64,000 bases of DNA from Eledone cirrhosa. Taxonomy: Eukaryota. Below, in pieces: positions 46,416-64,000 of this stretch. The notes beneath the pieces were generated by a model. That model was given only the letters and a program-made list of their open reading frames with translations. It had not been told where the DNA came from and did not search any database. Made by a program: the position numbers and the translations under genes. Location of the stretch: positions 234,546,001 to 234,610,000 of the forward strand of contig OZ024740.1 in the NCBI GenBank assembly GCA_964016885.1. Reading direction: 5' to 3'. Numbering within the stretch: position 1 is the first letter of the stretch; every line of letters starts with the position of its first letter.

Positions 46416-46459
<44 letters not shown>

Positions 46460-46720
46460 TTTCTTTATTAACCACAAGGGTTTACATAAAGTAGACATTA
46501 AGGACAGTGCAGGACAATGCAGGACGGTACAAATGGGCATTTCTGCGTGTAAAAAAACAAAAACAGAGGATGTAACAAAAATAACAATGAAAATAACAAT
46601 GAAAAAATTCCCCAATAGGGGGGAGACTTCGGAGGGACATTTGTGGAGAAAGCCCAGTAAAAAGCCACAATGACCCTGACCACCAAGGCAAGTGCCCTCT
46701 CCCAGTTTTCCACCTTTAGT

Positions 46721-49700
46721 TTACAGATATATACTCAGAGTCGGCCCATTCACTCGGGCCATTCTTGCTTCTCTCACCCATCTTTCAACAAAATGCTGGG
46801 AAGAGAGCACTTCCTTCTCTACTCTGATTTTCCTTTTCAAATGAAATTTGAAAAAGTCAATCAGAGCATCACCGAAGAGGTAAGTGCTCGTCTTCAGCCC
46901 TTTCAAACGTGTCCACCATACTATCTCTTTCGCCATGGCCACCAGACAGATAAAAACTGCCTGCCCTTCCCGGCTAAAGGAGGAGGGCGGGGCAATCCTC
47001 ACGATAGACTCAGATGATAGCTGGATCCGTCCTAAACGCGACAGCAGGTGTTCGACATAAACCCACAAGTCAGCAATTTTCGGACACTGGACGAGTGCGT
47101 GCAGGACGGTTTCGTCGCCCTGCGCGCATCTCGGACATGCCCGGCTGACGGCACCTCCATGCCTGTAGAGTTTATCCCGAACTGGCAAGGCTCCTCGGTA
47201 GCACTGCCAGGCCAGAGATTTCTGGAAGTTGTCCATAGGCCCTGGCCCGAAAGTTCTTCCGAAGAGATTGGCTAGTTGATTTTCGTCGACGCCTAGAGTT
47301 TCCCCAAGTACGTCGTCGCTCTTCCCCTCCACTAATCCTCTATAGAACGCCGAGGTGGAGTTTCCACCGATCACATTGCCCGATTGGTCGAGGGCTGTGA
47401 GCGCCTGAAGACATTCCAGTCTCCAGGCGCTCCCTCTCGGTCTTCGCTTGACCCAGGACTGCAGCTCCGTCAAGGAAACGAGCTGGGGAAAAACGCGTCT
47501 AGCAAACGGCGACCACACCTGATCACCGTCGAGGAAGAGGTGGAGATGTCGTAGCCTGAGCGCGTGCCTGCGCATCATCAGCCACGGCATGCCCAGCCCT
47601 CCACGTAGCGGGTGTTGACAACAGATGGACCGCCTGACCATCGGAGCACGTCCCTTCCACAAAAAGCGAAAGAGCAAACGCTCCAGCGCAGTCAGGCGAG
47701 GCTTAGGACAAGGTACGACGGTTAGGCGGTAGCAGATGACAGACGCGATGTACGCGTTAGCCACCTCCGCTCGACCTTTCAGGGATAGCTTCCTCTCCGC
47801 CCATTTCTGGGTGAGAGAAGCCACCCTGCTCGTCACCTCGTCCCAGTTTTTGTCCGTCTGGAGGTCCGGACCGAACCAGACCCCTAGCAATTTAACCGGT
47901 CCGTCCGTCCAGCGCCCGACGACGCTGTTGGACGGCATGGACCTGCCTCTCCAGGTGCCGAGCTGCAGGCCCACTGACTTTTCCTGGTTGATCATTGCTC
48001 CTGTCACCGCTTCGTATTCTCTTAGTGTAGTGCCGATCGCCTCGATGTGTTTGGCGTTCGACACCACTACGGTGACATCGTCCGCATATGCTGACACGGA
48101 TCTTCCGCATCCTAGTTCGCGCGGGACTCCCCTCAACGTCTCCAGTTTGTGCAGTAATGGCTCGAGAGTCAATACGTACAAGAGGGACGAGAGGGGACAT
48201 CCTTGGCGGACCGAGCGCATGATGTTGAACGGTTCCGACAGGTGACCGTTCACTCTCACCACAGAGCAGATGTCGCTGTGCATGGCAGCGATCCAGCCTC
48301 TGAAGACGGGCCCAAAGCCAGCCGCCCTCAGGACTGCCGCTAGGTAACGATGGTCGACCCTATCGAAAGCTTTCGACTGATCTAAATTGATCAAGGACCC
48401 ACCCGTGCCAGGTTCCCTAGCTACCCTCTCTACGATGTATCGCATGAGGTGGAGGTTGTCGTGGATGGATCTGTCGGGAATGGCGCATGTCTGCGCCTCT
48501 CCCACCAGACCACCAACGACAAGCGCCAACCTCTTTGCTAGCACCTTGGCCAAAATCTTAAACTCTGTGTTTAGCAGAGTTATGGGCCGGAAATTGTCTA
48601 TGTTATCCCCCTTGTTCGGATCCTTTCTCAGCAGTGCCACCGCTCCTCGGCTCACAGAACTGGGAATTCTCCCGTTCTGTTGCCAGTTGCAGTAGACGTC
48701 CGCCAAGAGGCCTCCGAACAAGTCTGGCATCTGTACGTAAAGTTCATAGGGCAGACCATCCAAACCAGGCGATTTACCCCTTGTGCAGCCAGTCATTGCC
48801 TCCCTTACTTCAGCGGCTGTTATCGGCTTTTCGCAACACTTCGCCTCAGTGGCCGAGAGCCGCGGCAGTCCGTCGAGGTAGACACTAAAGTCCATCCCTC
48901 TACCCGGCCCCCCGCTGCCCCCGAACAGCTGAGCGAAGTGTCGCTGAAAAGCTTCACACATTTGCCCGGGATCGAGTAGCATGCGCCCGTCGTGGTCCAC
49001 CAAAGACCGGATCGTGGCTTTGTTGCCACGACGCGCCTCCGCCACTCGGGCCCATTGAACGGCTTTCGTCCCCTCGTGTCTGAGAGCACGCACCCTAGCT
49101 CTGACAACGCAGCCTTCGTGCTTTGCATTGAAGAATTGGTCAAGGGCCAATTTCGCCGCAAGCACGTCGGTCGCAATGCCTTTGCTAAGCGCCTCGTCTA
49201 ATTTTCTAACTAGTTCTCCCTCTGCTCTATTTTTCTCTATTGCTAAAGCCTTACTAAACCTAATCGATTCTATTCTAATCGCTCTTTTCAGAGCAAACCA
49301 CCACTTGTTGTTGACGATGGCCCCCGTCAACGCCCGCTTAACTAGTTCGCTAATCCGGTCTCTGTAGGCCTTGCGCGCTGGTAAGGACGCGTTTAGCTTC
49401 CAGTAGCCGGGTCCTCGTCTATGAAGCCTATCTAAGTCAAGCACACAGATCACGAATTTGTGGTCCGTGTAGCTGACTATCTTGAATTGTGGACAGCCTA
49501 TGCTAGACCTATCTATTTCCCTACAAAATACTCTATCTAGATATGATCTGGATGACCCTATGCGGTTTGTCCAAGTCCACATTGGCACATTCGGGAAATC
49601 CAATCGGTACCTGTCAGACAGTTCAAAACGCCTGAGCAGGTTGGTGAGGCTCTTGCACCCTCCACCCCTATCCGCTAATCCCACACAGTCCCAGCGTGCA

Positions 49701-50140
49701 TCTAAGATCCCGTTCCAGTCGCCCACTAACACTAAAGAGCGCGACGTTCCAAGAAAGGTCTCCAGACGCCGGAAGAAATCAGGCCGCCCTGCTCCTGTCG
49801 GGGCATAGACGGCCACTAGCCTGAAAGCTTGCCCGTCTCCGCTGGTCACGTCCAGCACCACCAGCTTACCCTCTGGGTCCAGGAAGATGGCCCGTATGGC
49901 GAGATCCAAACCTCTCCGAAAAAGCACAGCAACTCCTCCACCCGATCCAGGACGGCTGGGAGATGCGTACACATCGTAGCCGCCGAAGATCGGTGCGAAG
50001 GCCCGTGCTTCGGAGATTCTGGTCTCGCTGATGGCCACTACATCTATGTTTAGTGACCTGAGGTCGTTGAGCAGGTGACCCTGCTTCCATGACGACCCCA
50101 AGCCACGCGCATTTATGCTGCCTATTCTGAGTGAGGTCAT
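46721..50140 (-). CDS. ORF2: AP-like endonuclease + reverse transcriptase + C-terminal CCHC zinc finger (1139 aa, intact)
   Basis: APE motifs GSINARG, AISET, VYAP, GDWN, YLDRV, TDHK. RT motifs KSPGLDG, FRPITLLN, LDQSKAFDRV, VRQGCPLS, YADD. C-terminal CPRC-x8-H-x4-C. Confidence 0.96.
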   Translation of the reverse strand: MTSLRIGSINARGLGSSWKQGHLLNDLRSLNIDVVAISETRISEARAFAPIFGGYDVYASPSRPGSGGGVAVLFRRGLDLAIRAIFLDPEGKLVVLDVTSGDGQAFRLVAVYAPTGAGRPDFFRRLETFLGTSRSLVLVGDWNGILDARWDCVGLADRGGGCKSLTNLLRRFELSDRYRLDFPNVPMWTWTNRIGSSRSYLDRVFCREIDRSSIGCPQFKIVSYTDHKFVICVLDLDRLHRRGPGYWKLNASLPARKAYRDRISELVKRALTGAIVNNKWWFALKRAIRIESIRFSKALAIEKNRAEGELVRKLDEALSKGIATDVLAAKLALDQFFNAKHEGCVVRARVRALRHEGTKAVQWARVAEARRGNKATIRSLVDHDGRMLLDPGQMCEAFQRHFAQLFGGSGGPGRGMDFSVYLDGLPRLSATEAKCCEKPITAAEVREAMTGCTRGKSPGLDGLPYELYVQMPDLFGGLLADVYCNWQQNGRIPSSVSRGAVALLRKDPNKGDNIDNFRPITLLNTEFKILAKVLAKRLALVVGGLVGEAQTCAIPDRSIHDNLHLMRYIVERVAREPGTGGSLINLDQSKAFDRVDHRYLAAVLRAAGFGPVFRGWIAAMHSDICSVVRVNGHLSEPFNIMRSVRQGCPLSSLLYVLTLEPLLHKLETLRGVPRELGCGRSVSAYADDVTVVVSNAKHIEAIGTTLREYEAVTGAMINQEKSVGLQLGTWRGRSMPSNSVVGRWTDGPVKLLGVWFGPDLQTDKNWDEVTSRVASLTQKWAERKLSLKGRAEVANAYIASVICYRLTVVPCPKPRLTALERLLFRFLWKGRAPMVRRSICCQHPLRGGLGMPWLMMRRHALRLRHLHLFLDGDQVWSPFARRVFPQLVSLTELQSWVKRRPRGSAWRLECLQALTALDQSGNVIGGNSTSAFYRGLVEGKSDDVLGETLGVDENQLANLFGRTFGPGPMDNFQKSLAWQCYRGALPVRDKLYRHGGAVSRACPRCAQGDETVLHALVQCPKIADLWVYVEHLLSRLGRIQLSSESIVRIAPPSSFSREGQAVFICLVAMAKEIVWWTRLKGLKTSTYLFGDALIDFFKFHLKRKIRVEKEVLSSQHFVERWVREARMARVNGPTLSIYL

Positions 50141-50175
50141 GTTTAAAATAGAGTGGAAAAGATGGGAAAGACCAC

Positions 50176-52276
50176 TTACCGTATTTTTGGTAGAGGAGGG
50201 ATGGTTTTTACATCCCTTTTCACTTGATCGTCTGGTGAAGGGACCGTTGAATCGTCCCTTCGGCTGGTCGTCGGCTCTTCTAAGAGAATGTCTGAATATA
50301 CTCTTCGATTAATGGTTCCTCCTAGGTCCCTGAAATCACCAACTGCGTTGGGGAATTTCGTTTTAATGTTTGTGTATTGTTTCTGTGCTATTTTTAGCAG
50401 TCTTATGTTAGTTGGCGTTTTGATTGGTGCTGGTATTATGTAGTCCTGTTGTGAAATGTCTGTGTGTTCAATTATGTAAGTCATTAGTTTCTTGTTGTGT
50501 GTGTTTATTGCCGTGCATTTGTTTTTCTGGGGGTGGGGTGTGGTTCTGCTATTTTCTTGTCGTTGTTGCTGGGTGTGTGTGTTTTGTTGTTGTGTTTGCG
50601 ATGTTGGTGCTTGTGGTGGTGGTGTTGAAGGTGTTGTTGGCGGTGGGGTTGTCGCCGGTGGTGATGGTGGTGCTGGTGTGGGTGGTGATGGTGTTGGTGG
50701 TGTTGCTGCTGTGGGTCTCTTTGCAGTAGACTTTACCCTTTTCTCATTTCTTTCCTCCCTTTTCAAAGGCGACGATGCGCTGCTTCTGCGTTTGTGCCTT
50801 CTTGAGACCTTTTGCCATCCCTCTCCCACCTCACACTCCATGTCTGATTCTGTAAGGTCGGGGAGGGGTACCAGCTCCACTCTTTCACTTGTTGTTGTTG
50901 GTGATGTTTGCACTGGAGTCTCTGTTGCAGCTGCATTTGGTATTGCTGTTGTTGTTGTTAATATTTCCACTGCTGCTGCTGTCTTTGATTTCCGTGGAGT
51001 GGGTATGGGTGCCACGGACCTATCGTTCCTGGTTGCCGCTTGTCCTGTTGCTGGTAGCCGTGGAACCGGATTCGGGAGGAGGGGGGTTTTCTCCTTTCTC
51101 AGGGTCTTCTCGTTGCAGAAGGCCCTGAGGTGAGTCTTCGATCCACAGCGAAAGCATTTCGGGCGTTTGCCCTCAACACTTATGGGCAGTTGAGTGCCGT
51201 TATCGAAGTCTATCACATCCGGGATAGCTTCGATGCACTCCTGGTTGGTTTGGATTAGCATCTCAATGGAGGAGCCGACCCAATCTTCTCTTACTTTTTT
51301 CTGTACTTGCAGTACAGTTGTTTTGTCCTCGATTCCGACGAGGACAGACGCGGCCAGCCAAGAAGGGGTCATTCCGGGGGGGACGTGGGTCAGTTTGACC
51401 CTCACAATTTTTTGCCCGCAGTAGGAGGGCACCAACACCATTTCCTCGCTCCTTAGGGTCACTACTGATTGGGCCTTTGCCTCCTGGGGTGTGGCAAAAA
51501 GTACGTCTACGGTGGCGTATTTTTTGCCTCGGGTGATGTGCGTTTTCCTCTGCCACACAGACCCCAAGGCTTTTTGTATTTGGGCCTCTGTGGCTCTTTC
51601 CACCCTACGGGATTTTGTACTTACTGTACGGTACGTGACCGTACAGTGCTCTTGGGTTTCGAAAAAATTTTTCGCTGCCTTGCAGATTGCTCGGTGTCCG
51701 TTCTTTGTCACCATCTTCTTCGCTTCCTCTAATTCCTCATTTGTTATGAGGATTGTTTCCAGGTTTTTCGCAATACCTGCAAATGAGATTGGTTTTTCTC
51801 TGCTGTTGTTGTTGTCGTCAGAGCTGCTGGTACTTTTGTTGTTGCTGCAGGTACTACGACTACTGCCTCCGCCGCTGTTGCTGTGGTTGTTGTTGGTGTT
51901 GCTGCTGCTAATGCTGTTGTTGTTTATGCTGCTGGTGATGCTGTTGCGGCTGCTACTGTTGTTTTCATTGTCACTGTTGCTGTTGTTATTACGGCTGCTA
52001 CTGCTATTATTCCTGACGTCAGACGAATGAACTGGGTTTTCGTATTTCCCGCACACCTGTTTCGTCGCTGTCGTCGTCGTCGTGGAGAAACCTTGCACGC
52101 TTTGCACGAGACTTTTCTTTTCTTTCGTCGCTTGCGAAAGAGAAGGTAGGGAGAGAGACACATTTAAAGAAGGGAGGGAGAGAGACAATCTTCTCTCTCC
52201 TGTAGTGATGATTGAGGAAGAAGAAGACGGAATGAGTGGGAGTGACGTATGAAATTTTTTTTTTTTTGGTAGCCAT
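50176..52276 (-). CDS. ORF1, gag-like nucleic-acid-binding protein with CCHC knuckle; apparent frameshift in an A-run just after the ATG
   Basis: CFRCGSKTHLRAFC knuckle, plus S/N-rich and P/T-rich tracts. The ATG at 52276 (MATKKK) is out of frame because a 13-nt homopolymer replaces the 9-nt stretch seen in copy 2. Confidence 0.85.
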
Positions 52277-52489
52277 GTTTTTTTGTTTAAAATGAAATTT
52301 TGGGTACAAAACCCCAATAACTGGCTATTTAACCCCGAAGGGCCAAATAACGGACAGAAAGACCCCTCTCACGAGGAGGAGGGTGTCTTTATCAACAATT
52401 TGGTTCAAGTTTTAAACAATTTACAATTGTTTTAACGGTTAAAAATTACTATACCTTACAGAGCCGAGCCTCCGTCAACCATGGCATTC

Positions 52490-52522
<33 letters not shown>

Positions 52523-52549
52523 AAAAAAAAAAAAAAAAAAAAAGGGAAA

Positions 52550-52586
<37 letters not shown>

Positions 52587-52994
52587 TATACATATATATA
52601 TATATACACGTATATATACACACACACATACATACACATACATACATATATACACACACACATACATACACATACACTCACACATATATACACACATACA
52701 TTAATAACAATAATAATAATAATAATAATAATGATTTCTTTATTAACCACAAGGGTTTACATAAAGTAGACATTAAGGACAGTGCAGGACAATGCAGGAC
52801 GGTACAAATGGGCATTTCTGCGTGTAAAAAAACAAAAATAGAGGATGTAACAAAAATAACAATGAAAATAACAATGAAAAATTCCCCAATAGGGGGGAGA
52901 CTTCGGAGGGACATTTGTGGAGAAAGCCCAGTAAAAAGCCACAATGACCCTGACCACCAAGGCAAGTGCCCTCTCCCAGTTTTCCACCTTTAGT

Positions 52995-55900
52995 TTACAG
53001 ATATATACTCAGAGTCGGCCCATTCACTCGGGCCATTCTTGCTTCTCTCACCCATCTTTCAACAAAATGCTGGGAAGAGAGCACTTCCTTCTCTACTCTG
53101 ATTTTCCTTTTCAAATGAAATTTGAAAAAGTCAATCAGAGCATCACCGAAGAGGTAAGTGCTCGTCTTCAGCCCTTTCAAACGTGTCCACCATACTATCT
53201 CTTTCGCCATGGCCACCAGACAGATAAAAACTGCCTGCCCTTCCCGGCTAAAGGAGGAGGGCGGGGCAATCCTCACGATGGACTCAGATGATAGCTGGAT
53301 CCGTCCTAAACGCGACAGCAGGTGTTCGACATAAACCCACAAGTCAGCAATTTTCGGACACTGGACGAGTGCGTGCAGGACGGTTTCGTCGCCCTGCGCG
53401 CATCTCGGACATGCCCGGCTGACGGCACCTCCATGCCTGTAGAGTTTATCCCGAACTGGCAAGGCTCCTCGGTAGCACTGCCAGGCCAGAGATTTCTGGA
53501 AGTTGTCCATAGGCCCTGGCCCGAAAGTTCTTCCGAAGAGATTGGCTAGTTGATTTTCGTCGACGCCTAGAGTTTCCCCAAGTACGTCGTCGCTCTTCCC
53601 CTCCACTAATCCTCTATAGAACGCCGAGGTGGAGTTTCCACCGATCACATTGCCCGATTGGTCGAGGGCTGTGAGCGCCTGAAGACATTCCAGTCTCCAG
53701 GCGCTCCCTCTCGGTCTTCGCTTGACCCAGGACTGCAGCTCCGTCAAGGAAACGAGCTGGGGAAAAACGCGTCTAGCAAACGGCGACCACACCTGATCAC
53801 CGTCGAGGAAGAGGTGGAGATGTCGTAGCCTGAGCGCGTGCCTGCGCATCATCAGCCACGGCATGCCCAGCCCTCCACGTAGCGGGTGTTGACAACAGAT
53901 GGACCGCCTGACCATCGGAGCACGTCCCTTCCACAAAAAGCGAAAGAGCAAACGCTCCAGCGCAGTCAGGCGAGGCTTAGGACAAGGTACGACGGTTAGG
54001 CGGTAGCAGATGACAGACGCGATGTACGCGTTAGCCACCTCCGCTCGACCTTTCAGGGATAGCTTCCTCTCCGCCCATTTCTGGGTGAGAGAAGCCACCC
54101 TGCTCGTCACCTCGTCCCAGTTTTTGTCCGTCTGGAGGTCCGGACCGAACCAGACCCCTAGCAATTTAACCGGTCCGTCCGTCCAGCGCCCGACGACGCT
54201 GTTGGACGGCATGGACCTGCCTCTCCAGGTGCCGAGCTGCAGGCCCACTGACTTTTCCTGGTTGATCATTGCTCCTGTCACCGCTTCGTATTCTCTTAGT
54301 GTAGTGCCGATCGCCTCGATGTGTTTGGCGTTCGACACCACTACGGTGACATCGTCCGCATATGCTGACACGGATCTCCCGCATCCTAGTTCGCGCGGGA
54401 CTCCCCTCAACGTCTCCAGTTTGTGCAGTAATGGCTCGAGAGTCAATACGTACAAGAGGGACGAGAGGGGACATCCTTGGCGGACCGAGCGCATGATGTT
54501 GAACGGTTCCGACAGGTGACCGTTCACTCTCACCACAGAGCAGATGTCGCTGTGCATGGCAGCGATCCAGCCTCTGAAGACGGGCCCAAAGCCAGCCGCC
54601 CTCAGGACTGCCGCTAGGTAACGATGGTCGACCCTATCGAAAGCTTTCGACTGATCTAAATTGATCAAGGACCCACCCGTGCCAGGTTCCCTAGCTACCC
54701 TCTCTACGATGTATCGCATGAGGTGGAGGTTGTCGTGGATGGATCTGTCGGGAATGGCGCATGTCTGCGCCTCTCCCACCAGACCACCAACGACAAGCGC
54801 CAACCTCTTTGCTAGCACCTTGGCCAAAATCTTAAACTCTGTGTTTAGCAGAGTTATGGGCCGGAAATTGTCTATGTTATCCCCCTTGTTCGGATCCTTT
54901 CTCAGCAGTGCCACCGCTCCTCGGCTCACAGAACTGGGAATTCTCCCGTTCTGTTGCCAGTTGCAGTAGACGTCCGCCAAGAGGCCTCCGAACAAGTCTG
55001 GCATCTGTACGTAAAGTTCATAGGGCAGACCATCCAAACCAGGCGATTTACCCCTTGTGCAGCCAGTCATTGCCTCCCGTACTTCAGCGGCTGTTATCGG
55101 CTTTTCGCAACACTTCGCCTCAGTGGCCGAGAGCCGCGGCAGTCCGTCGAGGTAGACACTAAAGTCCATCCCTCTACCCGGCCCCCCGCTGCCCCCGAAC
55201 AGCTGAGCGAAGTGTCGCTGAAAAGCTTCACACATTTGCCCGGGATCGAGTAGCATGCGCCCGTCGTGGTCCACCAAAGACCGGATCGTGGCTTTGTTGC
55301 CACGACGCGCCTCCGCCACTCGGGCCCATTGAACGGCTTTCGTCCCCTCGTGTCTGAGAGCACGCACCCTAGCTCTGACAACGCAGCCTTCGTGCTTTGC
55401 ATTGAAGAATTGGTCAAGGGCCAATTTCGCCGCAAGCACGTCGGTCGCAATGCCTTTGCTAAGCGCCTCGTCTAATTTTCTAACTAGTTCTCCCTCTGCT
55501 CTATTTTTCTCTATTGCTAAAGCCTTACTAAACCTAATCGATTCTATTCTAATCGCTCTTTTCAGAGCAAACCACCACTTGTTGTTGACGATGGCCCCCG
55601 TCAACGCCCGCTTAACTAGTTCGCTAATCCGGTCTCTGTAGGCCTTGCGCGCTGGTAAGGACGCGTTTAGCTTCCAGTAGCCGGGTCCTCGTCTATGAAG
55701 CCTATCTAAGTCAAGCACACAGATCACGAATTTGTGGTCCGTGTAGCTGACTATCTTGAATTGTGGACAGCCTATGCTAGACCTATCTATTTCCCTACAA
55801 AATACTCTATCTAGATATGATCTGGATGACCCTATGCGGTTTGTCCAAGTCCACATTGGCACATTCGGGAAATCCAATCGGTACCTGTCAGACAGTTCAA

Positions 55901-56414
55901 AACGCCTGAGCAGGTTGGTGAGGCTCTTGCACCCTCCACCCCTATCCGCTAATCCCACACAGTCCCAGCGTGCATCTAAGATCCCGTTCCAGTCGCCCAC
56001 TAACACTAAAGAGCGGGACGTTCCAAGAAAGGTCTCCAGACGCCGGAAGAAATCAGGCCGCCCTGCTCCTGTCGGGGCATAGACGGCCACTAGCCTGAAA
56101 GCTTGCCCGTCTCCGCTGGTCACGTCCAGCACCACCAGCTTACCCTCTGGGTCCAGGAAGATGGCCCGTATGGCGAGATCCAAACCTCTCCGAAAAAGCA
56201 CAGCAACTCCTCCACCGGATCCAGGACGGCTGGGAGATGCGTACACATCGAAGCCGCCGAAGATCGGTGCGAAGGCCCGTGCTTCGGAGATTCTGGTCTC
56301 GCTGATGGCCACTACATCTATGTTTAGTGACCTGAGGTCGTTGAGCAGGTGACCCTGCTTCCATGACGACCCCAAGCCACGCGCATTTATGCTGCCTATT
56401 CTGAGTGAGGTCAT
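52995..56414 (-). CDS. ORF2 APE-RT-CCHC (1139 aa, intact)
   Basis: Same motifs as copy 1; Y-to-F change in GGFDV. Confidence 0.96.
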   Translation of the reverse strand: MTSLRIGSINARGLGSSWKQGHLLNDLRSLNIDVVAISETRISEARAFAPIFGGFDVYASPSRPGSGGGVAVLFRRGLDLAIRAIFLDPEGKLVVLDVTSGDGQAFRLVAVYAPTGAGRPDFFRRLETFLGTSRSLVLVGDWNGILDARWDCVGLADRGGGCKSLTNLLRRFELSDRYRLDFPNVPMWTWTNRIGSSRSYLDRVFCREIDRSSIGCPQFKIVSYTDHKFVICVLDLDRLHRRGPGYWKLNASLPARKAYRDRISELVKRALTGAIVNNKWWFALKRAIRIESIRFSKALAIEKNRAEGELVRKLDEALSKGIATDVLAAKLALDQFFNAKHEGCVVRARVRALRHEGTKAVQWARVAEARRGNKATIRSLVDHDGRMLLDPGQMCEAFQRHFAQLFGGSGGPGRGMDFSVYLDGLPRLSATEAKCCEKPITAAEVREAMTGCTRGKSPGLDGLPYELYVQMPDLFGGLLADVYCNWQQNGRIPSSVSRGAVALLRKDPNKGDNIDNFRPITLLNTEFKILAKVLAKRLALVVGGLVGEAQTCAIPDRSIHDNLHLMRYIVERVAREPGTGGSLINLDQSKAFDRVDHRYLAAVLRAAGFGPVFRGWIAAMHSDICSVVRVNGHLSEPFNIMRSVRQGCPLSSLLYVLTLEPLLHKLETLRGVPRELGCGRSVSAYADDVTVVVSNAKHIEAIGTTLREYEAVTGAMINQEKSVGLQLGTWRGRSMPSNSVVGRWTDGPVKLLGVWFGPDLQTDKNWDEVTSRVASLTQKWAERKLSLKGRAEVANAYIASVICYRLTVVPCPKPRLTALERLLFRFLWKGRAPMVRRSICCQHPLRGGLGMPWLMMRRHALRLRHLHLFLDGDQVWSPFARRVFPQLVSLTELQSWVKRRPRGSAWRLECLQALTALDQSGNVIGGNSTSAFYRGLVEGKSDDVLGETLGVDENQLANLFGRTFGPGPMDNFQKSLAWQCYRGALPVRDKLYRHGGAVSRACPRCAQGDETVLHALVQCPKIADLWVYVEHLLSRLGRIQLSSESIVRIAPPSSFSREGQAVFICLVAMAKEIVWWTRLKGLKTSTYLFGDALIDFFKFHLKRKIRVEKEVLSSQHFVERWVREARMARVNGPTLSIYL

Positions 56415-56449
56415 GTTTAAAATAGAGTGGAAAAGATGGGAAAGACCAC

Positions 56450-58546
56450 TTACCGTACTTTTGGTAGAGGAGGGATGGTTTTTACATCCCTTTTCACTTG
56501 ATCGTCTGGTGAAGGGACCGTTGAATCGTCCCTTCGGCTGGTCGTCGGCTCTTCTAAGAGAATGTCTGAGTATACTCTTCGATTGATGGTTCCTCCTAGG
56601 TCCCTGAAATCACCAACTGCGTTGGGGAATTTCGTTTTAATATTTGTGTATTGTTTCTGTGCTATTTTTAGCAGTCTTATGTTAGTTGGCGTTTTGATTG
56701 GTGCTGGTATTATGTAGTCCTGTTGTGAAATGTCTGTGTGTTCAATTATGTAAGTCATTAGTTTCTTGTTGTGTGTATTTATTGCCGTGCATTTGTTTTT
56801 CTGGGGGTGGGGTGTGGTTCTGCTATTTTCTTGTCGTTGTTGCTGGGTGTGTGTGTTTTGTTGTTGTGTTTGCGATGTTGGTGCTTGTGGTGGTGGTGTT
56901 GAAGGTGTTGTTGGCGGTGGGGTTGTCGCCGGTGGTGATGGTGGCGCTAGTGTGGGTGGTGATGGTGTTGGTGTTGTTGCTGCTGTGGGTCTCTTTGCAG
57001 TAGACTTTACCCTTTTCTCATTTCTTTCCTCACTTTTCAAAGGCGACGATGCGCTGCTTCTGCGTTTGTGCCTTCTTACGACCTTTTGCCATCTCTCTCC
57101 CACCTCACACTCCATGTCTGATTCTGTAAGGTCGGGGAGGGGTACCAGCTCCACTCTTTCACTTGTTGTTGTTGGTGATGTTTGCACTGGAGTCTCTGTT
57201 GCAGCTGCATTTGGTATTGCTGTTGTTGTTGTTAATATTTCCACTGCTGCTGCTGTCTTTGATTTCCGTGGAGTGGGTATGGGTGCCACGGACCTATCGT
57301 TCCTGGTTGCCGCTTGTCCTGTTGCTGGTAGCCGTGGAACCGGATTCGGGAGGAGGGGGGTTTTCTCCTTTCTCAGGGTCTTCTCGTTGCAGAAGGCCCT
57401 GAGGTGAGTCTTCGATCCACAGCGAAAGCATTTCGGGCGTTTGCCCTCAACACTTATGGGCAGTTGAGTGCCGTTATCGAAGTCTATCACATCCGGGATA
57501 GCTTCGATGCACTCCTGGTTGGTTTGGATTAGCATCTCAATGGAGGAGCCGACCCAATCTTCTCTTACTTTTTTCTGTACTTGCAGTACAGTTGTTTTGT
57601 CCTCGATTCCGACGAGGACAGACGCGGCCAGCCAAGAAGGGGTCATTCCGGGGGGGACGTGGGTCAGTTTGACCCTCACAATTTTTTGCCCGCAGTAGGA
57701 GGGCACCAACACCATTTCCTCGCTCCTTAGGGTCACTACTGATTGGGCCTTTGCCTCCTGGGGTGTGGCAAAAAGTACGTCTACGGTGGCGTATTTTTTG
57801 CCTCGGGTGATGTGCGTTTTCCTCTGCCACACAGACCCCAAGGCTTTTTGTATTTGGGCCTCTGTGGCTCTTTCCACCCTACGGGATTTTGTACTTACTG
57901 TACGGTACGTGACCGTACAGTGCTCTTGGGTTTCGAAAAAATTTTTCGCTGCCTTGCAGATTGCTCGGTGTCCGTTCTTTGTCACCATCTTCTTCGCTTC
58001 CTCTAATTCCTCATTTGTTATGAGGATTGTTTCCAGGTTTTTCGCAATACCTGCAAATGAGATTGGTTTTTCTCTGCTGTTGTTGTTGTCGTCAGAGCTG
58101 CTGGTACTTTTGTTGTTGCTGCAGGTACTACGACTACTGCCTCCGCCGCTGTTGCTGTGGTTGTTGTTGGTGTTGCTGCTGCTAATGCTGTTGTTGTTTA
58201 TGCTGCTGGTGATGCTGTTGCGGCTGCTACTGTTGTTTTCATTGTCACTGTTGCTGTTGTTATTACGGCTGCTACTGCTATTATTCCTGACGTCAGACGA
58301 ATGAACTGGGTTTTCGTATTTCCCGCACACCTGTTTCGTCGCTGTCGTCGTCGTCGTGGAGAAACCTTGCACGCTTTGCACGAGACTTTTCTTTTCTTTC
58401 GTCGCTTGCGAAAGAGAAGGGAGGGAGAGAGACACATTTAAAGAAGGGAGGGAGAGAGACAATCTTCTCTCTGCTGTAGTGATGATTGAGGAAGAAGAAG
58501 ACGGAATGAGTGGGAGTGACGTATGAAATTTCTTTTTGGTAGCCAT
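56450..58546 (-). CDS. ORF1 (698 aa from ATG MATKKKFH), CCHC knuckle
   Basis: Open from the ATG at 58546; contains a CX2CX4HX4C motif. Confidence 0.9.
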   Translation of the reverse strand: MATKKKFHTSLPLIPSSSSSIITTAERRLSLSLPSLNVSLSLPSLSQATKEKKSLVQSVQGFSTTTTTATKQVCGKYENPVHSSDVRNNSSSSRNNNSNSDNENNSSSRNSITSSINNNSISSSNTNNNHSNSGGGSSRSTCSNNKSTSSSDDNNNSREKPISFAGIAKNLETILITNEELEEAKKMVTKNGHRAICKAAKNFFETQEHCTVTYRTVSTKSRRVERATEAQIQKALGSVWQRKTHITRGKKYATVDVLFATPQEAKAQSVVTLRSEEMVLVPSYCGQKIVRVKLTHVPPGMTPSWLAASVLVGIEDKTTVLQVQKKVREDWVGSSIEMLIQTNQECIEAIPDVIDFDNGTQLPISVEGKRPKCFRCGSKTHLRAFCNEKTLRKEKTPLLPNPVPRLPATGQAATRNDRSVAPIPTPRKSKTAAAVEILTTTTAIPNAAATETPVQTSPTTTSERVELVPLPDLTESDMECEVGERWQKVVRRHKRRSSASSPLKSEERNEKRVKSTAKRPTAATTPTPSPPTLAPPSPPATTPPPTTPSTPPPQAPTSQTQQQNTHTQQQRQENSRTTPHPQKNKCTAINTHNKKLMTYIIEHTDISQQDYIIPAPIKTPTNIRLLKIAQKQYTNIKTKFPNAVGDFRDLGGTINRRVYSDILLEEPTTSRRDDSTVPSPDDQVKRDVKTIPPLPKVR

Positions 58547-59043
58547 GTTTTTTTGTTTAAAATGAAATTTTGGGTACAAAACCCCAATAACTGGTTATTT
58601 AACCCCGAAGGGCCAAATAACGGACAGAAAGACCCCTCTCACGAGGAGGAGGGTGTCTTTATCAACAATTTGGTTCAAGTTTTAAACAATTTACAATTGT
58701 TTTAACGGTTAAAAATTACTATACCTTACAGAGCCGAGCCTCCGTCAACCATGGCATTCAATAATAATAATAATAATAATGATTTCTTTATTAACCACAA
58801 GGGTTTACATAAAGTAGACATTAAGGACAGTGCAGGACAATGCAGGACGGTACAAATGGGCATTTCTGCGTGTAAAAAAAACAAAAATAGAGGATGTAAC
58901 AAAAATAACAATGAAAATAACAATGAAAAATTCCCCAATAGGGGGGAGACTTCGGAGGAACATTTGTGGAGAAAGCCCAGTAAAAAGCCACAATGACCCT
59001 GACCACCAAGGCAAGTGCCCTCTCCCAGTTTTCCACCTTTAGT

Positions 59044-62000
59044 TTACAGATATATACTCAGAGTCGGCCCATTCACTCGGGCCATTCTTGCTTCTCTCAC
59101 CCATCTTTCAACAAAATGCTGGGAAGAGAGCACTTCCTTCTCTACTCTGATTTTCCTTTTCAAATGAAATTTGAAAAAGTCAATCAGAGCATCACCGAAG
59201 AGGTAAGTGCTCGTCTTCAGCCCTTTCAAACGTGTCCACCATACTATCTCTTTCGCCATGGCCACCAGACAGATAAAAACTGCCTGCCCTTCCCGGCTAA
59301 AGGAGGAGGGCGGGGCAATCCTCACGATAGACTCAGATGATAGCTGGATCCGTCCTAAACGCGACAGCAGGTGTTCGACATAAACCCACAAGTCAGCAAT
59401 TTTCGGACACTGGACGAGTGCGTGCAGGACGGTTTCGTCGCCCTGCGCGCATCTCGGACATGCCCGGCTGACGGCACCTCCATGCCTGTAGAGTTTATCC
59501 CGAACTGGCAAGGCTCCTCGGTAGCACTGCCAGGCCAGAGATTTCTGGAAGTTGTCCATAGGCCCTGGCCCGAAGGTTCTTCCGAAGAGATTGGCTAGTT
59601 GATTTTCGTCGACGCCTAGAGTTTCCCCAAGTACGTCGTCGCTCTTCCCCTCCACTAATCCTCTATAGAACGCCGAGGTGGAGTTTCCACCGATCACATT
59701 GCCCGATTGGTCGAGGGCTGTGAGCGCCTGAAAACATTCCAGTCTCCAGGCGCTCCCTCTCGGTCTTCGCTTGACCCAGGACTGCAGCTCCGTCAAGGAA
59801 ACGAGCTGGGGAAAAACGCGTCTAGCAAACGGCGACCACACCTGATCACCGTCGAGGAAGAGGTGGAGATGTCGTAGCCTGAGCGCGTGCCTGCGCATCA
59901 TCAGCCACGGCATGCCCAGCCCTCCACGTAGCGGGTGTTGACAACAGATGGACCGCCTGACCATCGGAGCACGTCCCTTCCACAAAAAGCGAAAGAGCAA
60001 ACGCTCCAGCGCAGTCAGGCGAGGCTTAGGACAAGGTACGACGGTTAGGCGGTAGCAGATGACAGACGCGATGTACGCGTTAGCCACCTCCGCTCGACCT
60101 TTCAGGGATAGCTTCCTCTCCGCCCATTTCTGGGTGAGAGAAGCCACCCTGCTCGTCACCTCGTCCCAGTTTTTGTCCGTCTGGAGGTCCGGACCGAACC
60201 AGACCCCTAGCAATTTAACCGGTCCGTCCGTCCAGCGCCCGACGACGCTGTTGGACGGCATGGACCTGCCTCTCCAGGTGCCGAGCTGCAGGCCCACTGA
60301 CTTTTCCTGGTTGATCATTGCTCCTGTCACCGCTTCGTATTCTCTTAGTGTAGTGCCGATCGCCTCGATGTGTTTGGCGTTCGACACCACTACGGTGACA
60401 TCGTCCGCATATGCTGACACGGATCTTCCGCATCCTAGTTCGCGCGGGACTCCCCTCAACGTCTCCAGTTTGTGCAGTAATGGCTCGAGAGTCAATACGT
60501 ACAAGAGGGACGAGAGGGGACATCCTTGGCGGACCGAGCGCATGATGTTGAACGGTTCCGACAGGTGACCGTTCACTCTCACCACAGAGCAGATGTCGCT
60601 GTGCATGGCAGCGATCCAGCCTCTGAAGACGGGCCCAAAGCCAGCCGCCCTCAGGACTGCCGCTAGGTAACGATGGTCGACCCTATCGAAAGCTTTCGAC
60701 TGATCTAAATTGATCAAGGACCCACCCGTGCCAGGTTCCCTAGCTACCCTCTCTACGATGTATCGCATGAGGTGGAGGTTGTCGTGGATGGATCTGTCGG
60801 GAATGGCGCATGTCTGCGCCTCTCCCACCAGACCACCAACGACAAGCGCCAACCTCTTTGCTAGCACCTTGGCCAAAATCTTAAACTCTGTGTTTAGCAG
60901 AGTTATGGGCCGGAAATTGTCTATGTTATCCCCCTTGTTCGGATCCTTTCTCAGCAGTGCCACCGCTCCTCGGCTCACAGAACTGGGAATTCTCCCGTTC
61001 TGTTGCCAGTTGCAGTAGACGTCCGCCAAGAGGCCTCCGAACAAGTCTGGCATCTGTACGTAAAGTTCATAGGGCAGACCATCCAAACCAGGCGATTTAC
61101 CCCTTGTGCAGCCAGTCATTGCCTCCCGTACTTCAGCGGCTGTTATCGGCTTTTCGCAACACTTCGCCTCAGTGGCCGAGAGCCGCGGCAGTCCGTCGAG
61201 GTAGACACTAAAGTCCATCCCTCTACCCGGCCCCCCGCTGCCCCCGAACAGCTGAGCGAAGTGTCGCTGAAAAGCTTCACACATTTGCCCGGGATCGAGT
61301 AGCATGCGCCCGTCGTGGTCCACCAAAGACCGGATCGTGGCTTTGTTGCCACGACGCGCCTCCGCCACTCGGGCCCATTGAACGGCTTTCGTCCCCTCGT
61401 GTCTGAGAGCACGCACCCTAGCTCTGACAACGCAGCCTTCGTGCTTTGCATTGAAGAATTGGTCAAGGGCCAATTTCGCCGCAAGCACGTCGGTCGCAAT
61501 GCCTTTGCTAAGCGCCTCGTCTAATTTTCTAACTAGTTCTCCCTCTGCTCTATTTTTCTCTATTGCTAAAGCCTTACTAAACCTAATCGATTCTATTCTA
61601 ATCGCTCTTTTCAGAGCAAACCACCACTTGTTGTTGACGATGGCCCCCGTCAACGCCCGCTTAACTAGTTCGCTAATCCGGTCTCTGTAGGCCTTGCGCG
61701 CTGGTAAGGACGCGTTTAGCTTCCAGTAGCCGGGTCCTCGTCTATGAAGCCTATCTAAGTCAAGCACACAGATCACGAATTTGTGGTCCGTGTAGCTGAC
61801 TATCTTGAATTGTGGACAGCCTATGCTAGACCTATCTATTTCCCTACAAAATACTCTATCTAGATATGATCTGGATGACCCTATGCGGTTTGTCCAAGTC
61901 CACATTGGCACATTCGGGAAATCCAATCGGTACCTGTCAGACAGTTCAAAACGCCTGAGCAGGTTGGTGAGGCTCTTGCACCCTCCACCCCTATCCGCTA

Positions 62001-62463
62001 ATCCCACACAGTCCCAGCGTGCATCTAAGATCCCGTTCCAGTCGCCCACTAACACTAAAGAGCGCGACGTTCCAAGAAAGGTCTCCAGACGCCGGAAGAA
62101 ATCAGGCCGCCCTGCTCCTGTCGGGGCATAGACGGCCACTAGCCTGAAAGCTTGCCCGTCTCCGCTGGTCACGTCCAGCACCACCAGCTTACCCTCTGGG
62201 TCCAGGAAGATGGCCCGTATGGCGAGATCCAAACCTCTCCGAAAAAGCACAGCAACTCCTCCACCCGATCCAGGACGGCTGGGAGATGCGTACACATCGT
62301 AGCCGCCGAAGATCGGTGCGAAGGCCCGTGCTTCGGAGATTCTGGTCTCGCTGATGGCCACTACATCTATGTTTAGTGACCTGAGGTCGTTGAGCAGGTG
62401 ACCCTGCTTCCATGACGACCCCAAGCCACGCGCATTTATGCTGCCTATTCTGAGTGAGGTCAT
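59044..62463 (-). CDS. ORF2 APE-RT-CCHC (1139 aa, intact)
   Basis: Same motifs; L-to-F change in ECFQ. Confidence 0.96.
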   Translation of the reverse strand: MTSLRIGSINARGLGSSWKQGHLLNDLRSLNIDVVAISETRISEARAFAPIFGGYDVYASPSRPGSGGGVAVLFRRGLDLAIRAIFLDPEGKLVVLDVTSGDGQAFRLVAVYAPTGAGRPDFFRRLETFLGTSRSLVLVGDWNGILDARWDCVGLADRGGGCKSLTNLLRRFELSDRYRLDFPNVPMWTWTNRIGSSRSYLDRVFCREIDRSSIGCPQFKIVSYTDHKFVICVLDLDRLHRRGPGYWKLNASLPARKAYRDRISELVKRALTGAIVNNKWWFALKRAIRIESIRFSKALAIEKNRAEGELVRKLDEALSKGIATDVLAAKLALDQFFNAKHEGCVVRARVRALRHEGTKAVQWARVAEARRGNKATIRSLVDHDGRMLLDPGQMCEAFQRHFAQLFGGSGGPGRGMDFSVYLDGLPRLSATEAKCCEKPITAAEVREAMTGCTRGKSPGLDGLPYELYVQMPDLFGGLLADVYCNWQQNGRIPSSVSRGAVALLRKDPNKGDNIDNFRPITLLNTEFKILAKVLAKRLALVVGGLVGEAQTCAIPDRSIHDNLHLMRYIVERVAREPGTGGSLINLDQSKAFDRVDHRYLAAVLRAAGFGPVFRGWIAAMHSDICSVVRVNGHLSEPFNIMRSVRQGCPLSSLLYVLTLEPLLHKLETLRGVPRELGCGRSVSAYADDVTVVVSNAKHIEAIGTTLREYEAVTGAMINQEKSVGLQLGTWRGRSMPSNSVVGRWTDGPVKLLGVWFGPDLQTDKNWDEVTSRVASLTQKWAERKLSLKGRAEVANAYIASVICYRLTVVPCPKPRLTALERLLFRFLWKGRAPMVRRSICCQHPLRGGLGMPWLMMRRHALRLRHLHLFLDGDQVWSPFARRVFPQLVSLTELQSWVKRRPRGSAWRLECFQALTALDQSGNVIGGNSTSAFYRGLVEGKSDDVLGETLGVDENQLANLFGRTFGPGPMDNFQKSLAWQCYRGALPVRDKLYRHGGAVSRACPRCAQGDETVLHALVQCPKIADLWVYVEHLLSRLGRIQLSSESIVRIAPPSSFSREGQAVFICLVAMAKEIVWWTRLKGLKTSTYLFGDALIDFFKFHLKRKIRVEKEVLSSQHFVERWVREARMARVNGPTLSIYL

Positions 62464-62498
62464 GTTTAAAATAGAGTGGAAAAGATGGGAAAGACCAC

Positions 62499-64000
62499 TT
62501 ACCGTATTTTTGGTAGAGGAGGGATGGTTTTTACATCCCTTTTCACTTGATCGTCTGGTGAAGGGACCGTTGAATCGTCCCTTCGGCTGGTCGTCGGCTC
62601 TTCTAAGAGAATGTCTGAATATACTCTTCGATTAATGGTTCCTCCTAGGTCCCTGAAATCACCAACTGCGTTGGGGAATTTCGTTTTAATGTTTGTGTAT
62701 TGTTTCTGTGCTATTTTTAGCAGTCTTATGTTAGTTGGCGTTTTGATTGGTGCTGGTATTATGTAGTCCTGTTGTGAAATGTCTGTGTGTTCAATTATGT
62801 AAGTCATTAGTTTCTTGTTGTGTGTGTTTATTGCCGTGCATTTGTTTTTCTGGGGGTGGGGTGTGGTTCTGCTATTTTCTTGTCGTTGTTGCTGGGTGTG
62901 TGTGTTTTGTTGTTGTGTTTGCGATGTTGGTGCTTGTGGTGGTGGTGTTGAAGGTGTTGTTGGCGGTGGGGTTGTCGCCGGTGGTGATGGTGGTGCTGGT
63001 GTGGGTGGTGATGGTGTTGGTGGTGTTGCTGCTGTGGGTCTCTTTGCAGTAGACTTTACCCTTTTCTCATTTCTTTCCTCCCTTTTCAAAGGCGACGATG
63101 CGCTGCTTCTGCGTTTGTGCCTTCTTGAGACCTTTTGCCATCCCTCTCCCACCTCACACTCCATGTCTGATTCTGTAAGGTCGGGGAGGGGTACCAGCTC
63201 CACTCTTTCACTTGTTGTTGTTGGTGATGTTTGCACTGGAGTCTCTGTTGCAGCTGCATTTGGTATTGCTGTTGTTGTTGTTAATATTTCCACTGCTGCT
63301 GCTGTCTTTGATTTCCGTGGAGTGGGTATGGGTGCCACGGACCTATCGTTCCTGGTTGCCGCTTGTCCTGTTGCTGGTAGCCGTGGAACCGGATTCGGGA
63401 GGAGGGGGGTTTTCTCCTTTCTCAGGGTCTTCTCGTTGCAGAAGGCCCTGAGGTGAGTCTTCGATCCACAGCGAAAGCATTTCGGGCGTTTGCCCTCAAC
63501 ACTTATGGGCAGTTGAGTGCCGTTATCGAAGTCTATCACATCCGGGATAGCTTCGATGCACTCCTGGTTGGTTTGGATTAGCATCTCAATGGAGGAGCCG
63601 ACCCAATCTTCTCTTACTTTTTTCTGTACTTGCAGTACAGTTGTTTTGTCCTCGATTCCGACGAGGACAGACGCGGCCAGCCAAGAAGGGGTCATTCCGG
63701 GGGGGACGTGGGTCAGTTTGACCCTCACAATTTTTTGCCCGCAGTAGGAGGGCACCAACACCATTTCCTCGCTCCTTAGGGTCACTACTGATTGGGCCTT
63801 TGCCTCCTGGGGTGTGGCAAAAAGTACGTCTACGGTGGCGTATTTTTTGCCTCGGGTGATGTGCGTTTTCCTCTGCCACACAGACCCCAAGGCTTTTTGT
63901 ATTTGGGCCTCTGTGGCTCTTTCCACCCTACGGGATTTTGTACTTACTGTACGGTACGTGACCGTACAGTGCTCTTGGGTTTCGAAAAAATTTTTCGCTG
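62499..64000 (-). CDS. ORF1, partial (truncated by window edge)
   Basis: Matches the copy 1 ORF1 C-terminal region, including the knuckle. Confidence 0.9.
   Translation of the reverse strand, partial: AKNFFETQEHCTVTYRTVSTKSRRVERATEAQIQKALGSVWQRKTHITRGKKYATVDVLFATPQEAKAQSVVTLRSEEMVLVPSYCGQKIVRVKLTHVPPGMTPSWLAASVLVGIEDKTTVLQVQKKVREDWVGSSIEMLIQTNQECIEAIPDVIDFDNGTQLPISVEGKRPKCFRCGSKTHLRAFCNEKTLRKEKTPLLPNPVPRLPATGQAATRNDRSVAPIPTPRKSKTAAAVEILTTTTAIPNAAATETPVQTSPTTTSERVELVPLPDLTESDMECEVGEGWQKVSRRHKRRSSASSPLKREERNEKRVKSTAKRPTAATPPTPSPPTPAPPSPPATTPPPTTPSTPPPQAPTSQTQQQNTHTQQQRQENSRTTPHPQKNKCTAINTHNKKLMTYIIEHTDISQQDYIIPAPIKTPTNIRLLKIAQKQYTNIKTKFPNAVGDFRDLGGTINRRVYSDILLEEPTTSRRDDSTVPSPDDQVKRDVKTIPPLPKIR

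Follow-up and report, generated by a model that had tools for sequence, protein, structure and literature searches.

Organization of the array

The window (the whole stretch of 64,000 nucleotides that was analysed) was found to contain, on the minus strand, a head-to-tail array of L1-group (APE-RT) LINE copies of 6.03 kb each, with (ATT)n on the flanks of every copy (Table 1). The array runs past the window, where two more copies were present, and ends at extended coordinate 77154. The three copies of the window were 99.5-99.9% identical, and among the five co-oriented copies there were 5-24 substitutions between copies 1, 2, 3/4 and 5. An earlier note on this DNA had described at least three co-oriented copies of about 6 kb with intact ORF2, (AAT)n tracts abutting their termini, copies 2 and 3 separated only by (AAT)7 and an old relative starting right after (ATT)15, and all of these were borne out at the positions in Table 1.

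Table 1. Features of the window and of the array beyond it (ext., extended coordinates)
Feature	Position	Strand	Remarks
(ATT)15	4703-4747	+	Directly ahead of the old relative
Decayed sister-lineage LINE (old relative)	4748-10297	+	76% identical, many stops/frameshifts, 3′ end missing
(AAT)14 = (ATT)14	46416-46457	-	At copy 1 3′ end; T-run and host DNA next, in element orientation
LINE copy 1, full length	46458-52489	-	6032 bp
Copy 1 ORF2	46721-50140	-	1139 aa, open, RT motif YADD
Copy 1 ORF1	50176-52276	-	RNA-binding-like region and one CCHC knuckle; A13 run shifts it out of frame relative to first ATG
Host spacer S	52490-52732	no strand	243 bp, between copies 1 and 2, ATT tract at either end
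(AAT)8 tracts	52490-52513 and 52709-52732		
LINE copy 2	52733-58759	-	6027 bp; 21-24 substitutions vs other four copies
Copy 2 ORF2	52995-56414	-	Open
Copy 2 ORF1	56450-58546	-	698 aa, open
(ATT)7 / (AAT)7	58760-58780	-	Sole DNA separating copy 3 3′ end from copy 2 5′ end
LINE copy 3	58781-64000, on to ext. 64812	-	
Copy 3 ORF2	59044-62463	-	Open
LINE copy 4	ext. 64834-70865		Identical to copy 3
Spacer S, second occurrence	ext. 70866-71122		Between copies 4 and 5
Spacer S, third occurrence	ext. 77155-77424		After copy 5

The three copies of spacer S were identical except for run lengths, and their tracts differed in unit number. Copies 3 and 4 were the only identical pair among 1225 pairs compared, and the A13 run was common to four of the five array copies and to none of 45 copies elsewhere. 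The identical pair and the private run point to copying after insertion, or to an assembly or polishing effect, and the reading of spacer S as a pure long target duplication was weakened by the private A-run common to the array copies. The array is likely to represent at least three separate insertions together with local copying or unequal exchange. Three sets of contigs and a Hi-C run yielded no record across the array stretch and no empty allele.

Coding regions and class of the element

The ORF2 of copies 1-3 was found to be open over 1139 aa and to contain an APE endonuclease, a reverse transcriptase and a C-terminal zf-RVT (Pfam domains Exo_endo_phos, RVT_1 and zf-RVT). Its best solved relative was human L1 ORF2p (E 3e-52; R2, E 1e-21), with which the catalytic APE and RT motifs were aligned. 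The ORF1 contained one CCHC knuckle (CX2CX4HX4C), as in the 698-aa ORF1 of copy 2, and zf-CCHC and RNA-binding domains were found in the look-alikes of ORF1. Both ORFs were intact only in copy 2 among the five array copies; copies 1, 3, 4 and 5 contained one extra A in the A-run near the ORF1 start, which may be a homopolymer error. Of 50 full-length copies in the genome, 22 had both ORFs open, and among 7315 dispersed copy pairs there were 24 at most 4 substitutions apart.

A separate nucleic-acid-binding ORF1, no LTRs and 5′-truncated copies with a common 3′ end were found, as in L1-group non-LTR elements, and the family is an L1-group non-LTR retrotransposon. A zinc-knuckle ORF1 is a necessary feature of the Tx1 clade and is not exclusive to it. 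Among the matches from the protein searches and the Atlas no named Tx1 reference was present; the nearest named protein matches were from Argonauta (74% in the RT), whereas turtles and fish gave unnamed proteins at ~40%. A link between ZCCHC3 and the Tx1 ORF1 was looked for in a literature check and not found. Membership of the Dong / R4 clade, with its single ORF and C-terminal restriction-like endonuclease, was ruled out by the two ORFs and the N-terminal APE, and Kibi or Koshi proper by junction tracts of ATT, not (TC)n or (TTC)n.

The 5′ UTR was found to fold better than shuffles (z -2.9), from which no function follows. No ribozyme was found by an Rfam scan of the junction region 58400-59100, which gave three weak chance-level matches only.

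Placement at (ATT)n in the genome

In an exact-pattern count of the whole genome, (ATT)3 was found in phase directly before 1564 of 1604 intact 5′ ends (97.5%), and (ATT)3 was present directly after 2972 of 3582 3′ termini (83%). The 5′ counts were made with an exact 26-mer, by which young subfamilies only are covered. The sister family was found to contain (ATT)3 before 1356 of 1450 5′ ends. The background was 29 of 165,000 host strand-positions (~0.0002) and the ATT placement is therefore not due to chance. Placement, orientation and phase were observed directly, always on the same strand relative to the ATT repeat, and strand-specific, strict, in-phase siting at (ATT)n across the genome is supported. 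The placement at (ATT)n proposed in the earlier note is thus upheld genome-wide, and the contrary outcome that it had named, most copies lacking 5′ (ATT)n, was not seen.

In the passages of PMC4494074 on target choice, a family is called target-specific when over 20% of its copies have a single type of repeat in the flank, a threshold that the present family exceeds by far at both ends. Kibi in (TC)n, Koshi in (TTC)n and the Tx1 families of crocodilians in (TTCC)n/(TTTC)n, as described in parts of PMC4494074 and PMC3812793, are likewise APE-type L1-group LINEs in one microsatellite. The present family differs from them in the (ATT)n target, the mollusc host, probably an octopus, and ~1,600 near-intact 5′ ends dispersed genome-wide.

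Junctions and target duplication

Of 67 copies tested, three were found with an interrupted tract repeated on both sides (34, 42 and 42 bp), and in further arrays interrupted tracts of 39, 24 and 59 bp were duplicated around copies. Since such tracts (24-59 bp) were duplicated on both sides, the flanking ATT is largely target DNA. The ATT following the 3′ end was indistinguishable from target in pure tracts and was equal to target in the marked cases, so that the element's own (ATT)n tail, as the earlier note had it, proved to be mostly target. At two junctions a GTT variant unit of the target directly followed the 3′ end, without any ATT in between, and a copied ATT tail is therefore not needed. 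TTC runs were seen to adjoin some ATT junction tracts.

The 70 3′ ends examined included 24 5′-truncated copies, of which only 8 contained (ATT)3 at the 5′ junction and 16 were without a 5′ ATT tract, so some insertions do not rebuild the target on both sides. Microhomology of 1-4 nt was found at truncated junctions inside tracts. Of the earlier idea that insertions rebuild their target on both sides and so build arrays, the doubling of the target was shown for the marked tandem junctions, and 16 of the 24 truncated copies did not agree with it.

The elements found in the flanks

The flanks beyond the tracts were often other elements bearing ATT tracts (38 of 60 upstream flanks), and in 14 of 55 downstream flanks the first sequence was the 3′ end, in antisense, of a LINE with a restriction-like endonuclease. 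These neighbours, which we take to be Dong-like from their motifs and a weak R2 match, contained a C-terminal restriction-like endonuclease and lay on the opposite strand to the LINE family. The flank matches of three loci (L070, L144 and L159) were rejected as long duplications, their 96-99% identity fitting separate young Dong-like copies. Sister LINEs, Dong-like LINEs and a SINE were mixed in the arrays.

Dong (R4 clade) is described as TAA-specific in silkworm, mosquito and snail (parts of PMC3812793 and PMC3774820), and in the passages of PMC4494074 and PMC3812793 on target repeats the (ATT)n target, as TAA, is given for Dong only. The microsatellite is common to Dong and the present family, to which Dong-like elements lie directly adjacent in this genome; the present family differs from these neighbours in its N-terminal APE, two ORFs and strand.

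Relationship of adjacent copies

A same-strand neighbour within 7.5 kb was present at 31 of the first 100 listed 5′ ends (expected 0.6%), and an opposite-strand neighbour at none, a same-strand clustering of ~50 times expectation. Similar arrays were present on seven contigs, and on contig C4 the presence of six junctions within 79 kb suggests an array of much greater length. The tandem clustering, the duplicated marked tracts and the distinct sequences of most neighbours (mostly 16-250 substitutions apart, as different as dispersed copies) were observed directly, and head-to-tail stacking is likely to follow from duplication of the landing site by each insertion. The earlier picture of arrays built by insertion is only partly supported, given the truncated junctions, the mostly-target tail and the local copying or recombination also present in the window's array.

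Among 45 adjacent pairs, identity with the downstream neighbour was anchored at the 5′ end in 10 and at the 3′ end in 2, the corresponding numbers for 7315 control pairs being 39 (0.5%) and 321. Sharing was skewed to the 5′ end (10 vs 2, p 0.04). The upstream copy contained the neighbour's 5′ part in 8 of 23 discovery pairs and in 2 of 22 held-out pairs, the latter counting all pairs (p about 0.007-0.01 vs control). Under the preset criterion (pairs with at least 15 substitutions), 5′ sharing was 0/10 and 0/6, with no replication and one 3′-shared pair per set, and the prediction of at least 20% 5′ sharing in (ATT)15-spaced pairs failed by its stated criterion. At one locus (L087) an 888-bp spacer was duplicated, yet the sequence departs from the downstream neighbour from base 26 onward.

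Proposed insertion route and alternatives

The family is probably a young L1-group LINE family in (ATT)n, of fixed orientation and phase, whose likely target-primed insertion would duplicate the tract and leave sites for the next copy. Target-primed reverse transcription would start at a nick in the (AAT)n strand, and part of the tract would be duplicated on both sides, thereby providing the landing sites. The 5′ end would be joined through annealing of the cDNA to the target: an RNA starting in the upstream tract would give a full-length cDNA ending in (AAT)n and so the near-invariant in-phase junction, and a truncated cDNA would join by chance microhomology, often losing the tract. If the insertion site is close upstream of a resident copy, annealing to this copy may sometimes take place, which would duplicate the spacer and the neighbour's 5′ part.

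Joining of the 5′ end by cDNA-target annealing is described for R2/R1 in parts of PMC3774820 and PMC2718515, and templated (SDSA-like) human L1 insertions in part of 10.1101/2024.08.27.596794. Uniform full-length junctions, microhomology at truncated ones and occasional duplication of nearby DNA are common to these systems and the present family, whose template would differ in being a same-family neighbour, copied over 0.5-5.8 kb, as suggested by weakly replicated sequence comparisons. Completion of a truncated cDNA in this way is offered tentatively, the chances being rather against it: the APE-type LINE would be anchored at either end in one trinucleotide repeat and, on landing just upstream of a sister copy, would copy the neighbour's 5′ end and spacer.

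A reading with somewhat less than an even chance keeps the same route and has the site chosen mainly by base pairing: AUU at the 3′ terminus of the RNA would pair with the strand that is nicked, and AAT at the terminus of the cDNA with the top strand, while the preference of the endonuclease would be for a short ATTA-like motif only. It is favoured by the contrast between full-length (97.5%) and truncated (8/24) 5′ junctions and by the uniform R2/R1 junctions attributed to target sequence on the RNA (parts of PMC3774820 and PMC2718515). It is also favoured by a SINE with a similar 3′ end, found with ordinary 8-20 bp duplications, of which 13 of the 21 non-pure ones began with ATTA in otherwise non-repeat DNA; however, use of the LINE family's enzyme by this SINE is suggested by tail similarity only, and the two GTT junctions were joined with no added ATT. 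The reading is compatible with target-primed insertion into (ATT)n and would lessen the support for a sequence-specific nuclease.

It is unlikely that the arrays grew chiefly once the copies were in place, through unequal crossing-over or gene conversion among co-oriented copies and among ATT tracts, with the hybrids and duplicated spacers as recombination products. The triplicated spacer S, the identical copies 3/4, the private A13 in four copies and the six junctions on C4 fit such growth, as do two held-out pairs that have 1.5-3.4 kb of 3′ sequence in common and three pairs only 2-3 substitutions apart; but neighbours mostly differ from each other as much as dispersed copies do, there is an overall 5′ bias in sharing, the L087 neighbour differs beside its duplicated spacer, and the ATT flanks of solitary copies are left unexplained.

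An element that brings ATT tracts at both ends and inserts with little preference would fit the 16 truncated copies without 5′ ATT and the pure tracts assignable to neither element nor target, but is very improbable against the locus-private interrupted tracts duplicated around copies, the flanks strongly enriched in tails or heads of other ATT-bearing elements and the same-strand clustering. Equally improbable is an origin of the five-copy array in assembly error, through merging of haplotypes or over-expansion of a repeat, to which the identical copies 3/4, the triplicated spacer, the shared homopolymer length and the missing spanning record lend some weight, but against which stand the 5-24 substitutions between copies, the differing unit numbers of the spacer tracts and the similar arrays on seven contigs; at most the doubling of copy 3/4 is doubtful.

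Significance of the (ATT)n family

The site-selective habit is known already, and the (ATT)n target is new for it. Target-regenerating tandem arrays are likewise known from R1 in Drosophila rDNA, SINEU-3 and double-insertion tandems (parts of PMC2718515, PMC4494074 and 10.1101/158386), which also contain head-to-tail copies with duplicated target between them and are open to unequal exchange after repeated insertion; in contrast to R1 and SINEU-3, the present family occupies a dispersed simple repeat, with duplications of tens to ~900 bp and arrays of mixed elements. Its use as an integration tool would be limited by the dispersed target and by truncated insertions, which often lose the 5′ tract.

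The family is a young, multi-copy APE-type LINE with very strict microsatellite targeting (97.5% of 1604), a process the molecular basis of which is called "not well understood" in a passage of PMC3812793, and the sister lineages on the same repeat make the question of enzyme versus RNA tail testable by swaps. In this cephalopod-type genome one repeat is used by two unrelated classes of retrotransposon as well as by a SINE, which together form mixed arrays. If copying from the neighbour is true, 5′ truncation would be mended within arrays, many copies would stay full length, ORF1 / 5′ UTR haplotypes would be shuffled, and host DNA of up to ~0.9 kb would be duplicated, at a repeat that an unrelated endonuclease family also occupies, on the opposite strand.

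Placement of the LINE family in ATT tracts

The LINE family was found to be a young, strictly ATT-placed builder of head-to-tail arrays and a real feature of the genome. An earlier note had proposed (ATT)n targeting, to be abandoned if most 5′ flanks lacked (ATT)n; on tabulation, the 26-base 5′ terminus was found 1604 times in the 3.0-Gb genome, 1564 of them directly after (ATT)3 and in phase. The 3′ terminus was found 3582 times, followed by (ATT)3 in 2972 cases; the background for (ATT)3 was 29 in 165,000 in host DNA surrounding the array. In a sister family, whose ORF1 is homologous but whose 5′ end differs, 1356 of 1450 5′ ends lay after (ATT)3. The upstream tract of the first 60 listed copies had a median of 8 units (at least three in 59 of 60) and the downstream tract a median of 14 units in the 55 of these with a 3′ end.

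Array layout and coding capacity

Of the at least three co-oriented copies described earlier, three (c1 to c3) were found in the window and two more (c4, c5) beyond it; all coordinates of the earlier note were correct on re-examination. The array copies were 6.03 kb long. Six (AAT)n runs of at least four units were found in the whole window, four belonging to the array and one preceding a decayed relative. The order in element orientation was host, (ATT)17, S, c5, S, c4, (ATT)7, c3, (ATT)7, c2, S, c1, (ATT)14, host, where the spacer S, a piece of host microsatellite DNA some 200 bp long, occurs three times with differences in run length only. No read or contig spanning the array stretch was found among the records examined.

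Positions of the features in window numbering ("extended" continues it past 64000 into neighbouring genome DNA)
Feature	Position	Strand	Remark
LINE copy c1	46458-52489	minus	both ends touch (AAT)n
LINE copy c2	52733-58759	minus	both ends touch (AAT)n
LINE copy c3	from 58781 onward	minus	ends touch (AAT)n
LINE copy c4	extended 64834-70865		neighbouring genome DNA
LINE copy c5	extended 71123-77154		neighbouring genome DNA
Decayed relative	4748-10297		preceded by one (AAT)n-type run
213-base 5′ UTR	52260-52489	minus	several predicted hairpins, folding z -2.9
SINE copies	1552-1737, 17884-18067, 18433-19008, 22235-22421, 43094-43276		also at loci L032, L034, L070
High-copy repeat, 232-bp copies flanking array	46122-46353, extended 77634-77865		99.6% identical to each other; other nearby copies about 94%
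Tandem repeat	27922-28600		eight 85-bp units, 98% identity
Short decayed fragment	25191-25334		similar to ORF2 C-terminus, 38% over 52 aa

ORF2 (1139 aa) was found to contain APE, RT and zf-RVT domains and was aligned over 850 residues with human L1 ORF2p, YADD and the catalytic residues of the endonuclease being conserved. ORF1, of 698 aa in c2, contained one CCHC knuckle and was similar to zf-CCHC and RNA-binding proteins. Judged by its sequence, the array element is an L1-group LINE. A zinc-knuckle ORF1 is a feature of Tx1, and on this ground the Tx1 name is plausible; the protein searches contained no named Tx1 reference among their matches. Named matches came from Argonauta and Octopus and point to an octopod host. 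Among 50 full-length copies (five from the array, one other, and 44 from a set of 60 retrieved through their 5′ end, of which the 16 partial ones were left out), ORF2 was open in 36, ORF1 in 24 and both in 22. Within the array both were open solely in c2; c1, c3, c4 and c5 contained A13 at a place that was an in-frame A12 in all 7 of the 7 related copies from other loci. The 5′ ends of the family were very uniform, and no Rfam match was found for the 5′ UTR region. A subfamily at loci L133, L147, L153, L164 and L181 matched at about 95% from element position 2266 to the 3′ end, but its ORF1 region, which lies ahead of that seam, was a different one.

Target DNA and 5′ joining

Exact flank duplications were sought in 67 copies, of which three contained interrupted tracts on both sides (34, 42 and 42 bp); the remainder contained pure ATT tracts, uninformative as to target versus element. 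Further arrays contained interrupted-tract duplications of 39, 24 and 59 bp. Because interrupted tracts were duplicated on both sides, the ATT tracts around the copies are largely target DNA. In two marked duplications the LINE 3′ end was joined directly to a GTT variant unit, so the (ATT)n tail ascribed to the element in the earlier note is at least sometimes no tail. Longer duplications around one copy were of 888 bp (locus L087), 868 bp (locus L105), 232 bp (array B, a further array of the family) and, in the window array, S. The next downstream element was another family copy in all long and all marked short duplications.

The 70 loci fetched by 3′ end comprised 24 5′-truncated copies, 17 set aside for internal deletions or for belonging to a subfamily whose ORF1 is different, and 29 full length or running past the locus edge. 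Rebuilding of the target on both sides, as claimed before, does not hold for every insertion: at their 5′ junction only 8 of the 24 truncated copies kept (ATT)3, and of the 13 with an identity of at least 95% only 4 did. Most truncated 5′ junctions contained 1-4 bases of microhomology. Since (ATT)3 was kept by so few, full-length and truncated copies are joined differently at the 5′ end. The LINE transcript would start inside the upstream ATT tract. In R2 and R1, according to the accessible parts of PMC3774820 and PMC2718515, target sequence on the RNA gives uniform 5′ junctions and truncated copies use microhomology; the LINE family is like them in its uniform full-length and microhomologous truncated junctions.

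Elements sharing the tracts

Beyond the tracts, other retroelements were found in 38 of the 60 upstream flanks of the first 60 listed copies, namely 3′ ends of the family itself or of its sister, the tail of a SINE, and antisense fragments of two LINE families. These two families, which we take to be Dong, contained a C-terminal restriction-like endonuclease that weakly matched the nuclease region of R2. Fourteen of 55 downstream flanks opened with the antisense 3′ end of a restriction-like-endonuclease LINE. Both families were young; they occupied these tracts in antisense orientation, and their 3′ ends carried (AAT)n. Mixed arrays of them and the ATT-placed family were found at L087, L105, L119, L066 and other loci. 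The SINE was about 190 bp, abundant and in places tandem, with a final motif close to the last 25 bases of the LINE. At least 8 shared bases (ordinary duplications) were found in the flanks of 30 of 36 full-length SINE copies, and 13 of 21 non-pure duplications started with ATTA. The SINE was likely mobilised by this LINE lineage.

Formation of the arrays

Of the 5′ ends listed, the first 100 were checked for neighbours within 7.5 kb: 31 had one on the same strand and none had one on the opposite strand (expected 0.6%). Direct junctions of exactly 8 units numbered 30 and of exactly 15 units 10, on seven contigs. The arrays are built mainly by separate insertions, since most neighbours were 16-250 substitutions apart and in this resembled dispersed copies (median 63, 1225 pairs). 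On another contig (G000 C4, 357962762-358041602), the spacing of five direct (ATT)8 junctions, in multiples of about 6.06 kb, points to at least 14 copies in one array; the one pair compared was 9 substitutions apart.

In the window array, c2 and c5 were 20-24 substitutions from the other copies, c1 was 5 from c3/c4 and no closer to them than dispersed copies L117, L083 and L084, and c3 and c4 were identical. The first 290 bases of c5 contained c1-type alleles with the private A13 of the array, followed by another haplotype. In the simplest history, the two tracts flanking S received three or more insertions, S was afterwards copied along with the 5′ end of the resident element, and c3/c4 arose by a single plain doubling, either a real one or a fault of the assembly.

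Copying from the neighbour during insertion was examined in a discovery set of 24 adjacent pairs (13 arrays; not all independent), 23 with differences. Identity from the 5′ end ran improbably far (521-2917 bp, p<0.01 each) in 8 of 23, and identity from the 3′ end in 0 of 23; control pairs from different loci gave 15 of 2927. Two held-out sets were picked by spacer length. The (ATT)8 set contained two near-full copies at 13 of 19 junctions, with 5′ sharing in 0 of 10 and 3′ sharing in 1 of 10 pairs of at least 15 substitutions. At (ATT)15, where 9 of 10 were usable, more 5′ sharing than at (ATT)8 had been predicted beforehand; this failed, with 0 of 6 such pairs (3′ sharing 1 of 6). Among all held-out pairs with any difference, 5′ and 3′ sharing were each found in 2 of 22 (controls 39 of 7315 and 321 of 7315, respectively), so 5′ sharing was still enriched (p 0.007-0.01) and 3′ sharing was at control level. 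Because 5′ sharing was far rarer in held-out than in discovery pairs, neighbour copying during insertion would be no more than a minority route, and the same structure also results when alleles undergo unequal exchange. For human L1, the accessible part of 10.1101/2024.08.27.596794 proposes an SDSA-like step behind templated insertions. The boldest reading, in which truncated insertions repair themselves on a copy next to them, is conceivable, and we lean somewhat against it.

Comparison with known systems

The accessible parts of PMC4494074 and PMC3812793 describe Kibi, Koshi and crocodilian Tx1 families as microsatellite-specific APE elements and list a TAA target for Dong. Tandem arrays with duplicated target between copies are described for R1, SINEU-3 and double insertions generally (PMC2718515, PMC4494074 and 10.1101/158386, in part). 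Recently active L1-Tx1 and Dong-R4 families are reported in octopus, with no target preference stated in the accessible parts of PMC13282606, PMC10294476 and PMC9115989, and the literature text searched yielded no report of a Tx1-type family specific for ATT. The LINE family works like Kibi and Koshi in its microsatellite placement and like tandem R1 in its head-to-tail arrays; unlike those of Kibi and Koshi, its ATT target did not appear among the targets given for elements with this class of endonuclease in the text available. As far as these sources extend, this way of working is already known, and what is new is the ATT target for an APE-type LINE.
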